Virus record (IMG/VR): IMGVR_UViG_3300029461_000057 | Length of the DNA: 5,974 nt | Origin: a virus | Taxonomy: Duplodnaviria; Heunggongvirae; Uroviricota; Caudoviricetes | Reading direction: 5' to 3' (one strand) | In this document: piece by piece, positions 975 through 5,974 of the stretch | How positions within the stretch are numbered: position 1 is the first letter of the stretch | How the letters are laid out: every line of letters begins with the position of its first letter | The notes under the pieces: model-generated | Databases searched by the model: none | Told to the model about the DNA's origin: nothing | The model's input: the letters and a program-made list of their open reading frames with translations, nothing else | Position numbers and translations under genes: made by a program

Positions 975-1757
975 GTGAAAAATACTAAAGCAATTCAATA
1001 CCGCCTGCGTAATGGTCAGAGTGTCGAAGTGACCATCAATAATGATGGTGTGCCTGGCGAAAAGGTTTCGATCTCTGAACTGGCTATCGAAAAAACCATC
1101 ATGTGCCACCTTGGCTTTACTGAAGAAGTGAGCAAAAAGCATGGTGTAGCAATCTGGAGCGCAATGGATACTGGTATGCGCAGATTCATTACTGCTCGTA
1201 CCCCAGGGATGACCATGATGGACCTCATGCAGATTGCGCCGCTGTTTGAATGTGAGCCTTTAGATGTATTCAGCAATCCAGCTATCTGCCAGCAGCTATA
1301 TGGTGAGATGAAACTCGCGGTTACCCCCATTGTGCTGCATGAAGGATCGCTTGCTGGCGTGTGGAAAGTGGAGCGTATTTCAAGCTACATGCCTTTCCAT
1401 GTCAACGGCGTAATCACTGGTGAAAATCAACCTGTTTCCGTTATAAAGTCAGACCTCAAGCGCGCAATTCTTGAAGCAAGTTGTCGAGTTGTCGGCCTGG
1501 GCAAACAGTCTTATGTTTCCTTCCCGGCTGGCCCTGAAGGCCCGGCAGAAATTCTGATTATGGATGCCGATCTGCTCTGGCAAATACAGTTTCTGATTGG
1601 CAAAAGCATCATCCGCGCTGAAGAACTCGATCAGTACATTACCTGCACGATGACGGATGAAGTCAAAAGTGTGGCTATAGCCAATGCCCGGAACCTATGT
1701 CGTGCTGCATTAACAGAACTGCAAGAAAACACCACGGAAGAAGTGGAAAGCGATTAA
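975..1757 (+). CDS. Hypothetical protein (260 aa), no recognisable motif; likely co-transcribed with the upstream gene
   Basis: GTG start at 975 lies 6 nt after the upstream stop, with GGAG (962-965) 9 nt upstream. Uninterrupted 260-codon frame ending TAA 1755-1757, immediately followed by the terminator hairpin. The only antisense ORF (1016..1330) is short and lacks a plausible RBS. Confidence 0.7.
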   Translation: MKNTKAIQYRLRNGQSVEVTINNDGVPGEKVSISELAIEKTIMCHLGFTEEVSKKHGVAIWSAMDTGMRRFITARTPGMTMMDLMQIAPLFECEPLDVFSNPAICQQLYGEMKLAVTPIVLHEGSLAGVWKVERISSYMPFHVNGVITGENQPVSVIKSDLKRAILEASCRVVGLGKQSYVSFPAGPEGPAEILIMDADLLWQIQFLIGKSIIRAEELDQYITCTMTDEVKSVAIANARNLCRAALTELQENTTEEVESD

Positions 1758-1787
1758 AAAAAATCCCGCCGACTGGCGGGATTTCTT
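1756..1787. terminator. Bidirectional rho-independent terminator between convergent operons
   Basis: Perfect 10-bp inverted repeat AAATCCCGCC (1761-1770) / GGCGGGATTT (1775-1784) with 4-nt loop GACT. On the minus-strand transcript the hairpin is followed by an 8-U run (complement of A 1756-1763). On the plus strand it is followed by TTTCTT. It sits exactly between the stop codons at 1755-1757 (+) and 1787-1789 (-). Confidence 0.85.
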
Positions 1788-2098
1788 CAATATACGATCT
1801 GGTCTACATGATCACCAAAATCATCGTCGTCGTCGTCCTCATCGCCACCATCTACTGCTGGCCAATCAACAAACCAGCCAGCGTAAAGATGCAGCGTTCG
1901 GAGAACATCACTTGCGGGAGCATCAAGGGTGTTAACGAATCCCATATAGCTATTGGGATTTGCCCCAGCTATGGCTTCAGCGATCATGTCCTCGGTAATG
2001 TCACCGGAGATAATGCTTAAACGCCCGGAAACTTCTTCATTATCATCAAATTCGATAATGGCATCTCCACCTAATGGCGCTGCGATTTTAATCTGCAT
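1787..2098 (-). CDS. Small highly acidic protein (103 aa) with C-terminal poly-Asp tail; translationally coupled to the upstream large gene
   Basis: ATG at 2096-2098 (minus) is preceded by AAGGAG (complement of 2106-2111) with 7-nt spacing. The start overlaps the last 8 nt of the 995-aa ORF. Stop TGA (1787-1789) abuts the terminator. The protein ends ...DGGDEDDDDDDFGDHVDQIVY. Confidence 0.75.
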   Translation of the reverse strand: MQIKIAAPLGGDAIIEFDDNEEVSGRLSIISGDITEDMIAEAIAGANPNSYMGFVNTLDAPASDVLRTLHLYAGWFVDWPAVDGGDEDDDDDDFGDHVDQIVY

Positions 2099-5075
2099 TA
2101 TTTAGCTCCTTTGCCACACCTAATAACAGTTCCAGCAATCCGTCACCATTCATCAGTGATGCGGCAGCGGCCTCTTTGTCATGATACAACTGAAGAGCCA
2201 TAGAGAATACTTCCGTTGCTGACGTTTTGGAAATAGTCGGTGATTTCTGCCGAATTTTCCCGGTGTTACTTACTGAGGCTGGCGGGTATACCTTCGCCAT
2301 ATAAATATTACTCAATCGAGATCTGAAGCACCATTCAGGCTTGCCACGCCCACCGATATTGACGAAAGATGGCTTATCCCCTTCAACATTGGCCTTCAGG
2401 AATGACCGGGCTTTCTCTAACAAACCAGGGTTACTGTACTCAAGATGATGACCCAGCTCGTGCCACAGTGCACTTGCATTTTCATCGTTCAAATTGACAG
2501 CAACAACACCATTAAGATTTGCATATGCCCTTCCCTGGTGGTGAACTACCTTTGATAAGGTCGATATTTTCCCGCCGGTCAGGCGATAAATATCAGCAAG
2601 TTCCTTGCGCAGGTCTATCCCACCATTCTGTCCAGCGCGGGCTTCTTCCACTTCTTCTGTGATAAAAGAGTCGGCCCACTCAAGAGCTTTTTCTTCAGAT
2701 ACGGATGAGTTTGCGATCGCACTGTTCATGGCAGATAACACTTTCTCGTGGACCGAACCCATACTTCGCTGATTCATTTGCCAGCGTATCTGCGGGTTAT
2801 ATGAGAATCGCTTAAGTAGTTGGTCAAGCTGCTCAAGTTCTTCTTCACTGACATACTTTTTAGCCTCACCAATAATGCCAGGGAGAATATTGCCGTTAGG
2901 ATTAAACGCTCGCGAAAGGAAGAGTTTCAGCGCCCCCATGCCCTCCGATGCTTCAATATCACCAATAACCCGGTTAACAATGGCCGCACTCTTCGGATTA
3001 GCATCCGCCAACGCTCTGGCTACGATTTGCAGGGACGATACGACCTCACGCTGCATATCCGTCCTGATCTCATCAATAAACTCTGGCGTTATGCCGTGCT
3101 CTTTAAGGATATCCCTGCCTTCCGCCGTTACCCCATCGATATCACCGACATGTTTATTAACCCGACTTTGCAATGCCTTAAATGCCTTCAGAATTCCACG
3201 GGCATCATCCGCTTTACTAACGGCCTTCCTGAATGCTGGCAAGAAGTCTGAGTTAACCTCATTTTGTTGATCGGCCCACTGAATGGAGGCTTCTTTCATC
3301 TCGTCCAGAGTCAGATCACCCAACGCGGTATGGTCTGTGAATATGAGCGACAACCTCTGAATCATTTCTGCCAATGGTGATGCCGAATGCGCCGCGCTAA
3401 GGAATGCTTTCACCCTGGTTGGGCGAATGGAAAACCAGTCAATAGCTGGTGGCATATCTCCGTTTTTTATCGCCTGCGCTATCTCATCAAAGCCGTCGCG
3501 CCCAAGGGAGGATGCGTGATTTAACAATCCGCGAAGTAACGAATTGCTGATACCGAATAATCGGCACCATTTATTCACGTCGGCAACAGGCATTCGAACA
3601 AAATGCGCAAGCACTTGTACAAGCTGTTCATCCTGGGGATCTGTACGGGAAAGCAGCCTGATCAGATGAATAATGTCTTTGATGCCGGATGCCCGATGTA
3701 ATAGCAAGCTGGTATATGGAGCAACACCGTTGTAACTACCGCCGGAAACGGACTCGAAAAGACCGCCGGATATCCCTTGCATGCCTTCGTTTTCCAGTTC
3801 CTGAGACACCTGGCGAAGGATATCCTGTAACGACACATCACCACCGCCAAACATATCCCCCAGCGCCTGGCCCTGGTGCTGTAACTCATCATTGATACGT
3901 TGAGCCATCAATTTAAAGGCGGTGGCCATACGCTTCGCGCTACGGTTATTCGCGACGATGAACAACGCGAGTGCTTTCACTTCCGGGGCCGTTTCGCTGA
4001 ACATATCCCCCTGAGCAATAACATCGGTAATATGCTGGCCTGACTCCTTCGATTGCCTTACCAGGTCTACCGCATCTTTCAATGCCGCCAGCGCCTTTTT
4101 ATCGAGGCTATCCGCTGTCTCAATGCCATCAACAATAGTTGTCACAGCCTGCTTGTGCGCTTCTCCTGATAAAGCCTGCATCTGGACAAAATCATTGGCT
4201 GCCGCATTAAGCGCCGTCAGAACATTACGCATATCCGGATCAGGTTCTTCTGCAACCATCCTTACCAGGCGCGCATCCTTATATGCCTTGGCAAAGATCG
4301 CGTTTTGTATACGGTCTACAAGTTGCCGTGTTGGTCGCCCATCTTCAGTTACAAGGCCAGCCGCCTGTGTGGCACCAACTTGCGTCATAAATCCGCGAAT
4401 AAACGCGTCATTACTGCGGCTAAGCAGATCTCCACTTTCTGACGGGTTAAACAACGCCATCATCGCCGGTGTTATGCTGTCGGCATCAACAAAAGCCTTT
4501 TCACTGGCTGCCATTTCCTGGAGATCAGAAATATTTGAGTCCTTGGCAAACTGAACACGGTCAACCTTAGTTAACCGGCGGCGCACCAGTACCGGAGCCG
4601 TCATTGATTCAACCTTTTCAGGAGGTATGCCGAATTCGGTCGCATGTTCAATCAGGTACTCACGATACCGATCCGCATTGCCGTCCTGATAGGCTTTGAT
4701 GATCCCCATGGTCCGTCCATTACCTGACTCAACGGCATTGTCCTCACCAATTATCGGCGCGCCATGGCTGGATAAACCGGAATCAGTAAGCTGAGCAGGC
4801 CGCAAATCTTTGGATATCTGGTTAACCTGAAGAAGGCTGGATGCGCGGGTCCGGTCGCGCGGTTGAAGTTCCTGGGGATAGTCAGGATTAATTTTCCCAT
4901 CCAGAGTATTGGATACCAAAAGAGCTGAGGCATCGACGATATCAAACGCTGTTTTTACCTCGTCTCCCTTCGCTGTCACCACATACGAAACCCGCCCATA
5001 ATCGGGCAGGTTCTTTAGCAGCTCGATCAGCGTTTCTATGCTGGTGGCCATTACCACCTGATCGCTTAAGCTCAT
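2088..5075 (-). CDS. Large multidomain protein (995 aa): N-terminal ParB/sulfiredoxin-like region plus C-terminal HExxH zincin-like metallopeptidase motif; polyvalent-protein-like architecture
   Basis: Single uninterrupted 2988-nt frame with coding-like composition; every overlapping opposite-strand ORF is under 150 aa. Residues ~60-130 read INPDYPQELQPRDRTRASS ... GAPIIGEDNAVESGNGRTMGIIKAY, which parallels the ParB N-domain pattern (P.QPR ... PI.V ... GERR.RA). HELGHH is encoded at 2445-2462 (minus) in the context NASALWHELGHHLEY. The start is ATG 5073-5075, with Met9 at 5049-5051 as an alternative; neither has a strong SD. Confidence 0.9.
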   Translation of the reverse strand: MSLSDQVVMATSIETLIELLKNLPDYGRVSYVVTAKGDEVKTAFDIVDASALLVSNTLDGKINPDYPQELQPRDRTRASSLLQVNQISKDLRPAQLTDSGLSSHGAPIIGEDNAVESGNGRTMGIIKAYQDGNADRYREYLIEHATEFGIPPEKVESMTAPVLVRRRLTKVDRVQFAKDSNISDLQEMAASEKAFVDADSITPAMMALFNPSESGDLLSRSNDAFIRGFMTQVGATQAAGLVTEDGRPTRQLVDRIQNAIFAKAYKDARLVRMVAEEPDPDMRNVLTALNAAANDFVQMQALSGEAHKQAVTTIVDGIETADSLDKKALAALKDAVDLVRQSKESGQHITDVIAQGDMFSETAPEVKALALFIVANNRSAKRMATAFKLMAQRINDELQHQGQALGDMFGGGDVSLQDILRQVSQELENEGMQGISGGLFESVSGGSYNGVAPYTSLLLHRASGIKDIIHLIRLLSRTDPQDEQLVQVLAHFVRMPVADVNKWCRLFGISNSLLRGLLNHASSLGRDGFDEIAQAIKNGDMPPAIDWFSIRPTRVKAFLSAAHSASPLAEMIQRLSLIFTDHTALGDLTLDEMKEASIQWADQQNEVNSDFLPAFRKAVSKADDARGILKAFKALQSRVNKHVGDIDGVTAEGRDILKEHGITPEFIDEIRTDMQREVVSSLQIVARALADANPKSAAIVNRVIGDIEASEGMGALKLFLSRAFNPNGNILPGIIGEAKKYVSEEELEQLDQLLKRFSYNPQIRWQMNQRSMGSVHEKVLSAMNSAIANSSVSEEKALEWADSFITEEVEEARAGQNGGIDLRKELADIYRLTGGKISTLSKVVHHQGRAYANLNGVVAVNLNDENASALWHELGHHLEYSNPGLLEKARSFLKANVEGDKPSFVNIGGRGKPEWCFRSRLSNIYMAKVYPPASVSNTGKIRQKSPTISKTSATEVFSMALQLYHDKEAAAASLMNGDGLLELLLGVAKELNNAD

Positions 5076-5102
5076 CCCTGTTACGCCTTATCCAATGTGC
5101 CG

Positions 5103-5126
5103 CCCCCTACGCTCCTCATAGTGGGG
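5103..5126 (+). other. Candidate imperfect hairpin (7-bp stem with one bulged T, 9-nt loop); possible IS200/IS605 left-end subterminal hairpin
   Basis: CCCCCTA (5103-5109) pairs with TAG(T)GGGG (5119-5126) if T5122 is extrahelical; loop CGCTCCTCA. It lies ~50 nt upstream of the tnpB start, where left-end hairpins of this IS family sit. Weak, judged by eye. Confidence 0.25.
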
Positions 5127-5174
5127 ATATAAGGCACAGTTTTCCTCCCGGCTATTTTTGCTTAAAATAGTGAC

Positions 5175-5974
5175 ATGAAACAACAGGTGTCATTCAAATT
5201 CCGGTTAAAACCAGATGGTCAACAGGAGCGTCAAATGAGGCGCTTTGCCGGAGCTTGTCGTTTCGTTTTCAACCGTGCTCTGGCGCTTCAGAATGAGAAT
5301 CATGAGGCCGGTAAAAAATACATCCCTTACACGAAAATGGCTTCCTGGTTGGTTGAGTGGAAAAAAGACACTGAAACCGAATGGCTTAAAGATTCTCCCT
5401 CACAGCCATTGCAACAGTCACTGAAAGACCTTGAGCGGGCTTACAAAAACTTCTTCCAGAATCGGGCAGCTTTTCCCCGATTCAAAAAGCGGGGACAGAA
5501 TGATGCATTCCGCTACCCGCAGGGTGTTAAGCTCGATCAGGAAAACAGCCGTATTTTTCTGCCGAAACTTGGCTGGATGCGCTACCGGAATAGCCGTCAG
5601 GTCACGGGTATTGTGAAAAATGTTACTGTCAGCCAGTCCTGCGGTAAGTGGTACATCAGTATTCAGACAGAAAGAGAGGTATCCACTCCTGTTCACCCTT
5701 CAGCATCAATGGTCGGACTGGATGCTGGCGTGGCTAAACTCGCCACGCTGTCAGATGGCACAGTCTTTGAACCTGTAAATAGTTTTCAGAAAAACCAGAA
5801 GAAGCTGGCGAGACTTCAGCGACAGTTAAGCCGCAAGGTCAAATTCAGCAACAACTGGCAGAAGCAGAAACGCAAAATACAGCGACTGCATTCCCGTATC
5901 GCAAATATCCGCAGGGACTACCTTCACAAAGTCACAACGACCGTCAGCAAAAACCACGCAATGATTGTCATTGA
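5175..5974 (+). CDS. tnpB: IS200/IS605-family TnpB (RNA-guided endonuclease / OrfB), 5' portion; continues past the window end
   Basis: ATG at 5175-5177 opens a frame that runs to the window edge (266 codons, no stop). Translation MKQQVSFKFRLKPDGQQERQMRRFAGACRFVFNRAL ... MVGLDAGVAKLATLSDG is typical of the TnpB N-terminal region, and GLDAG (5715-5729) is the RuvC-I motif with the catalytic Asp. It is missing from the supplied ORF track only because it has no stop inside the window. Confidence 0.9.
   Translation, partial: MKQQVSFKFRLKPDGQQERQMRRFAGACRFVFNRALALQNENHEAGKKYIPYTKMASWLVEWKKDTETEWLKDSPSQPLQQSLKDLERAYKNFFQNRAAFPRFKKRGQNDAFRYPQGVKLDQENSRIFLPKLGWMRYRNSRQVTGIVKNVTVSQSCGKWYISIQTEREVSTPVHPSASMVGLDAGVAKLATLSDGTVFEPVNSFQKNQKKLARLQRQLSRKVKFSNNWQKQKRKIQRLHSRIANIRRDYLHKVTTTVSKNHAMIVI

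Follow-up and report, generated by a model that had tools for sequence, protein, structure and literature searches.

The 5,974-nt stretch of virus DNA analyzed here (IMG/VR record IMGVR_UViG_3300029461_000057, referred to at its full length as the window) contains an open reading frame (ORF) of 995 aa plus stop at 2088..5075 (minus strand) which, judged by sequence comparison, is ddrB of a P1-like (SJ46-type) phage-plasmid, its product being the orthologue of P1 DdrB. The P1 Dar (defence against restriction) system has six internal head proteins, DdrB among them. The protein was read as a two-enzyme polyvalent protein that would be self-cleaved, with the N-terminal module packaged and co-ejected and its ParB pocket functional; this joint account was given a probability of about 0.6. 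The gene, its name, its Dar role, and the ParB plus metallopeptidase architecture have all been published (the architecture in 2017), and the architecture, which the first-pass annotation of the window did not recognize as that of a characterized protein, is thus not new.

Identification of ddrB

The ORF was confirmed as first called, with an ATG start on the minus strand. By tblastn, its product was 98.8% identical to that of P1 ddrB (NC_005856, YP_006491.1) across 995/995 aa, with 983 residues identical and 12 substituted (none within the motifs described below), and 99.9% identical to J46_0045 of the P1-like Salmonella phage SJ46. PHROG 2299 aligned end to end with the 995-aa protein. The window was 99% identical to SJ46 across 5.9 kb, and 97.5% identical to phage P1 in the parts shared. 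A pN/pS of 0.135 against P1 indicates purifying selection on ddrB, and the 90%-identity cluster of DdrB holds 7,943 sequences. Gene order in P1 is LPdar-lydA-lydB-hdf-darA-ddrA-ddrB-hxr; in SJ46, ddrA, darA, hdf, lydB, and lydA lie upstream of ddrB in the same operon, with an insertion sequence (IS) element between ddrA and ddrB. These upstream genes fall outside the window, in which hxr lies directly downstream of ddrB.

A ParB/sulfiredoxin-type fold at the N terminus

Pfam family PF18763 (DdrB-like ParB), which is named after DdrB, matched aa 36-167 (4575..4970, minus strand) with 135 bits against a gathering cut-off of 27.6 (E 1.9e-39, model positions 2-120 of 121). The QPR and SGNGR motifs, from which a ParB/sulfiredoxin (Srx)-like domain had been proposed, were located as claimed at aa 71-73 (4857-4865) and aa 117-121 (4713-4727), and are conserved. 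They form part of QPRDR (aa 71-75, 4851..4865, minus strand) and ESGNGR (aa 116-121, 4713..4730, minus strand), in which all residues (Q71, P72, R73, D74, R75, E116, S117, G118, N119, G120, and R121) were invariant in 84 homologues, so that neither motif was attributed to chance. QPRDR is the counterpart of the QPR preceding ParB box I, and ESGNGR, with its GxxR at a strand-to-helix turn, that of ParB box II and the Srx GCHR. D112 and Y137 were also invariant in the 84 sequences, Y137 lying within modelled helix 135-143; in our own reading of the text of Iyer et al. (2017), R121, D112, and Y137 correspond to the active-site Arg, the Asp/Asn at the end of strand 2, and the Tyr of the extra helix.

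A full-length AlphaFold (AF2) model was made from the 84-sequence alignment, with a mean predicted local distance difference test score (pLDDT) of 87. Residues 29-170 were modelled as an alpha+beta domain of the ParB/Srx kind. Strand 114-117 runs into ESGNGR and helix 119-131, a basic strand (161-167) comes further on, and the order of elements (QPR loop, helix, strand, GxxR helix, strand) is the same as in ParB. Structural matches included KorB (score 7.0, rank 4), PadC, a ParB-like nuclease (6.7, rank 6), SbnI (6.1, rank 19), pNOB8 ParB-N (6.1, rank 21), and sulfiredoxin (5.9, rank 40). The leader (aa 1-26; 4998..5075, minus strand) was modelled as two short helices, 3-9 and 13-21 (pLDDT 68-79), and was variable and poorly conserved in alignment A1. 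Comparison of the DdrB N-terminus with the 30-residue DarB packaging signal was not significant (local score 21; shuffles 17.5 +/- 3.2, of which 16% reached this score).

Pfam ParB_N returned no matches at E <= 10 on seven diverse DdrB domains (Spo0J control, E 6e-39), and searches of PDB sequences, with the single protein or with the 84-sequence profile, gave just non-significant helical matches. The N-domain profile (Neff 2.6) gave no alignment in hhalign to one Spo0J and one sulfiredoxin sequence (the former validated as ParB_N), a result too weak to weigh against the fold. No sequence-level link between the DdrB N-domain and classical ParB was found, and the assignment to ParB is a structural one, made on the predicted model. 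DdrB therefore differs from its structural relatives in the ParB/Srx superfamily (KorB, PadC, pNOB8 ParB-N, SbnI, and sulfiredoxin) in having no ParB_N match. Partition ParB has a GERRxR box II, whereas DdrB has ESGNGR, and neither a ParA partner nor a recognizable centromere-binding helix-turn-helix (HTH) was detected for DdrB. Because ParB_N, GERRxR, ParA, and HTH were all wanting, the domain was assigned to the ParB/Srx nucleotide-pocket type; the proposed ParB-like fold was retained on the PF18763 match and the model, and identity with a partition ParB was not. With its ESGNGR motif and no ParB_N match, the domain is not read as a canonical cytidine triphosphate (CTP)-dependent ParB clamp.

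A predicted gluzincin at the C terminus

Residues 776-995 (2091..2750, minus strand; pLDDT 91.8) form a predicted zincin metallopeptidase (MPTase) domain of the gluzincin type. HELGH (aa 872-876; 2448..2462, minus strand) would provide two zinc-binding His and the catalytic Glu. The longer WHELGHH was present as reported, at aa 871-877, and spans 2445-2465; the range first given, 2445-2462, was three bases short, as 2462 ends HELGH. One HExxH was observed in the 995-aa protein against 0.026 expected from composition, and chance was discounted because no substitution of H872, E873, or H876 was seen among 60 diverse proteins with which DdrB has just the C-terminal domain in common. At the 50% cluster level, an exhaustive HMMER search with aa 690-995 gave 374 relatives, whose common core starts at ~aa 780. 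Invariant residues in the 60 diverse relatives were R849, H872, E873, H876, Y925, and E955, and near-invariant residues E879, E914, K928, Y930, and T954. YMAKVY (aa 925-930; 2286..2303, minus strand) contains a Tyr pair that is a candidate transition-state stabilizer (Y925 invariant; G927, K928, and Y930 at least 90%). T954-E955 (2211..2216, minus strand; T954 at least 90%) stands at the start of helix 956-962, and E955 is most likely the third zinc ligand, by analogy with gluzincins.

In the AlphaFold model a three-stranded sheet (842-845, 851-853, and 857-860) is followed directly by the HExxH helix (868-881) and then by the helix bearing E955, which is the layout of zincin MPTases, and similarity in fold to solved zincins was found. 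No Pfam family, and with it no curated zincin or MPTase sequence model, matched aa 690-995 at E <= 0.1, nor did any match the common C-domain of the 60 relatives at E <= 0.001; of the profile searches that the first-pass annotation had suggested for the two ends, the N-terminal one recovered PF18763 and the C-terminal one no Pfam zincin model. The domain was thus placed among the gluzincins, its nearest relatives of solved structure being M34/ATLF-like (PPEP-2, PPEP-3, and anthrax lethal factor; also MtfA, of family M90). Identity to these is just 13-15%, no Pfam zincin model matches DdrB, and the P1 clade differs from them by a ~20-residue insert between the Tyr motif and the Glu helix. M34-like toxins are moreover secreted and trans-acting, whereas the role proposed for DdrB is cis-processing. 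The conserved Tyr-then-Glu order in the DdrB domain recalls lethal factor.

Membership of the SprT/Wss1- or ImmA/IrrE-like peptidases, as first proposed, was not upheld, and what stands of that proposal is the zincin fold around HExxH. Both groups scored lower than the M34-like matches. SprT/Wss1 peptidases have their third ligand, a His, six residues after HExxH (HExxHx5H), a pattern not present in DdrB, which has N882 at this position and E955 as the likelier ligand. Relatives of the C-domain also carry MuF, DdrB-ParB, LPD3, or InPase domains on one polypeptide, which fits packaged polyvalent proteins.

Helical regions and module boundaries

The stretch between the two motifs, ~750 residues, had been described as holding no recognized motif, and no significant Pfam match was found across it; when sub-regions were scanned at E <= 10, PF18763 remained the one credible match, and NCBIfam gave no matches to DdrB. 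A Foldseek search of PDB with the full-length model retrieved nothing but long helical proteins (E > 0.4), an outcome that carries no information and does not count as a negative. Conservation divides the protein. Residues 173-432 (3780..4559, minus strand), helical in the AF2 model, always accompany the ParB domain and are conserved like it (mean column identity of aa 1-432 = 0.81, alignment A1). A disordered linker at aa 433-449 (3729..3779, minus strand; pLDDT <50) marks a module-shuffling boundary, beyond which aa 450-775 (2751..3728, minus strand) form a variable all-helical region with a mean identity of 0.44, pLDDT mostly >85, and conserved islands at aa 644-653 and 697-704.

Homologues of the N-terminus only (n = 110) ended at aa 420-447 (median 442), 65 stopping there and 40 going on with unrelated C-termini, and homologues of the C-terminus only started at aa ~760-825. 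From the conservation blocks and these end-points, DdrB was therefore divided into four parts: the conserved module of ParB domain and helices, a linker, a spacer specific to the lineage, and a peptidase of the processing type. The two modules were also found apart in unrelated phages: the zincin domain alone at the C-terminal end of a 1,207-aa protein of the Ackermannviridae Vibrio phage BX-1 (L004, 2106-5729), and the ParB-plus-helical module alone inside a >3,000-aa protein of Pseudoalteromonas phage Y3 (L003, 4051 onwards).

Processing, packaging, and alternative readings

P1 DdrB was placed among the polyvalent proteins by Iyer, Burroughs, Anand, de Souza, and Aravind (2017; PMC5512222), who assigned it a "DdrB-like ParB" domain at the N-terminus and a zincin MPTase at the C-terminus. 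Citing earlier work in which DdrB is processed to a 76-kDa form prior to packaging, these authors proposed MPTase autoproteolysis with packaging of the N-terminal fragment, and favored nucleoside triphosphate (NTP) sensing or degradation for the ParB domain. Polyvalent proteins in their sense are delivered along with DNA and carry several effector-type domains per polypeptide, zincin MPTase included; P1 DdrB is a worked example, which bears out the polyvalent-protein idea of the first-pass annotation. Many such proteins hold far more domains (e.g., the >3,000-aa phage Y3 protein with a DdrB-like domain), whereas DdrB has just two recognizable enzymatic domains with ~600 helical residues between.

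DdrB was found in virions by 39 peptides with 59.5% coverage of the full-length sequence, and its role was given as "aids DarB addition to capsid" (Gonzales et al., 2022); the peptide positions are absent from the PMC9024508 supplement. A 2026 structure paper on DarA/Hdf gives the loading order as Hdf/DarA, then DdrA, DdrB, DarB, and Ulx, and ties Ulx, DarB, and DdrB to EcoB/EcoK. Dar protects in cis only, on co-packaged DNA (PMC12707154). The ddrB gene is non-essential, and its mutant phenotype was taken from secondary sources. Disruption of ddrB reportedly decreases sensitivity to EcoB/EcoK, which would mean that DdrB modulates protection and is not just its source. To our knowledge, no activity has been reported for either DdrB domain in the literature consulted.

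The proposed mechanism takes the identity of the protein and its domain folds from this analysis, and packaging, assembly order, and phenotype from the literature; self-cleavage, the identity of the packaged fragment, and the ParB chemistry are inferred. Of the accounts weighed here, this one, as already published, has the best support. DdrB is made late in infection and enters the prohead once Hdf/DarA and DdrA have been loaded, and there it helps DarB incorporation. The C-terminal gluzincin (H872, E873, H876, and E955, with Y925/Y930) would cleave the 109-kDa precursor in cis, inside the variable helical region, to yield the 76-kDa packaged form, and this form would retain the N-terminal module, i.e., the ParB/Srx-like domain and helices 173-432. 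DdrB is co-ejected with phage DNA, which the Dar system shields in cis from type I restriction (EcoB/EcoK in the case of the DarB branch), and the ParB-like domain may bind or hydrolyze nucleotide, or contact DNA, via its invariant GxxR pocket (R121). Computed masses were 76.3 kDa for aa 1-700 and 75.8 kDa for aa 301-995; as both are ~76 kDa, the packaged end is not decided from mass alone.

The best-surviving alternative, though an unlikely one, is that the zincin enters the host as an effector protease and, once ejected, attacks a host protein such as a component of restriction or of another defence, the 76-kDa DdrB being made by the P1 prohead protease Pro, which is T4 gp21-like and processes capsid protein between E120 and S121. 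Such a role is listed as a possibility for polyvalent MPTases (PMC5512222), the solved folds nearest to the domain (anthrax lethal factor and PPEPs) are trans-acting endopeptidases, and 59.5% coverage by mass spectrometry is high for a 700-aa fragment (~590 residues covered). However, no host target is known, the domain in relatives is usually extreme C-terminal, after variable cargo, which suits a cis-processing module, and the peptidase would be missing from the 76-kDa virion form if this is the N-terminal fragment.

Somewhat less probable again, the ParB-like domain could be a non-specific DNase or nickase acting on host or competitor DNA, or an aid to early P1 replication or recombination, rather than a nucleotide sensor or assembly adaptor. 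Several ParB/Srx relatives, among them Osa, GmrS, and ParB-methylase, were reported as nucleases or NTPases (PMC5512222), and PadC, annotated as a ParB-like nuclease domain protein, was among the top structural matches. Against this, NTP sensing or degradation is favored by Iyer et al., cis-only Dar action is hard to square with a diffusible nuclease, and any nuclease packaged next to the phage genome would have to be tightly inhibited.

A more speculative idea, for which we would hold out little expectation, is that the C-domain (~370 clusters, no Pfam model) may define a distinct lethal-factor/PPEP-like gluzincin clade specialized for head-packaged phage proteins; in DdrB it would be co-injected and cut a host target such as a type I restriction component, with the ParB-like module acting at the incoming DNA end as a nucleotide-gated switch. 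If true, a co-injected gluzincin with a nucleotide-gated ParB switch would be a proteolytic antirestriction mechanism not previously described.

It is more improbable still that DdrB is a mere structural adaptor which loads DarB, with both enzyme-like domains catalytically irrelevant. Aiding DarB addition is the sole function assigned in the accessible literature, and assembly dependencies confound dar mutant phenotypes, but the invariance of R121, H872, E873, H876, and E955 across distant homologues with unrelated architectures would be unexpected for a pure scaffold. ParB-like and zincin domains are also found in defence systems, and CapP and IrrE were weak structural matches, but a part in a bacterial anti-phage defence system, which the first-pass annotation had left as open as attack, was rejected on phage operon context and PADLOC results, since the ORF belongs to a P1-like phage's late dar operon, DdrB is present in virions, partner domains in relatives are phage-head domains, and no PADLOC model matched DdrB or three neighbors at E <= 0.01. 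Overall, the interpretation first offered was partly supported.

Other genes and elements of the window

The hxr gene (1787..2098, minus strand) is 97% identical to P1 Hxr. There is an 11-nt overlap between its start and the ddrB stop, an arrangement as in P1 that suggests translational coupling with ddrB. The P1 annotation calls hxr a possible Xre-like repressor; no matches were obtained in Pfam, NCBIfam, or PADLOC at the thresholds used. Inside ddrB, a 143-aa antisense ORF (4123-4554, plus strand) matches what is annotated in P1 as iddB ("internal to ddrB"). Nothing supports its status as a gene, and it faces the best-conserved part of ddrB, which alone could hold the frame open.

Unlike P1, the window has an IS200/IS605-family tnpB element (5092-5974, plus strand) between ddrA and ddrB, in opposite orientation to ddrB. 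The element lies 16 nt upstream of the ddrB ATG, and homology to P1 ends at 5091. Its tnpB ORF (TnpB/insQ, RNA-guided endonuclease family) starts at 5175 and continues past the window end. The ddrB/IS junction was 100% identical in the listed plasmid records; 492 plasmid records matched the junction query, and at least 75 covered most of it. With this insertion in place, ddrB and hxr may no longer be coupled to the late promoter LPdar, and a weak sigma-70-like match (5193-5164, minus strand) is directed towards ddrB.

On the plus strand, a 281-aa ORF (123-968) matched PF11195 over aa 197-280 (Tad2-like, for Thoeris anti-defence 2-like, formerly DUF2829; E 2.5e-22) and is a candidate second anti-defence gene near the Dar operon. 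Its alignment to PHROG 872 begins at aa 57, and the true start may be an ATG near 291. The following ORF (975-1757, plus strand, 260 aa) is IsaA-like, 94% identical to aa 60-321 of P1 IsaA, and had no Pfam matches. P1 IsaA corresponds to aa 1-65 of the former ORF fused to the latter and P1 has no Tad2-like domain; a ~650-nt deletion in P1, or an insertion in the window lineage, therefore follows from the fusion layout. P1 has IS1 and isaB between isaA and hxr, and the window is without both.

Implications

As a discovery the result adds little, given that the gene, name, Dar role, and architecture were known. P1-like phage-plasmids with ddrB are very common in clinical E. coli and Salmonella, as judged by the 7,943-sequence cluster and the 492 plasmid records, and mechanistic interest remains: ~forty years after Dar was described, its block of type I restriction is still called unclear (PMC12707154). 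The module map and the residues identified here (R121; H872, E873, H876, and E955; Y925 and Y930; and the linker at 433-449) offer a direct guide to the design of point mutants.

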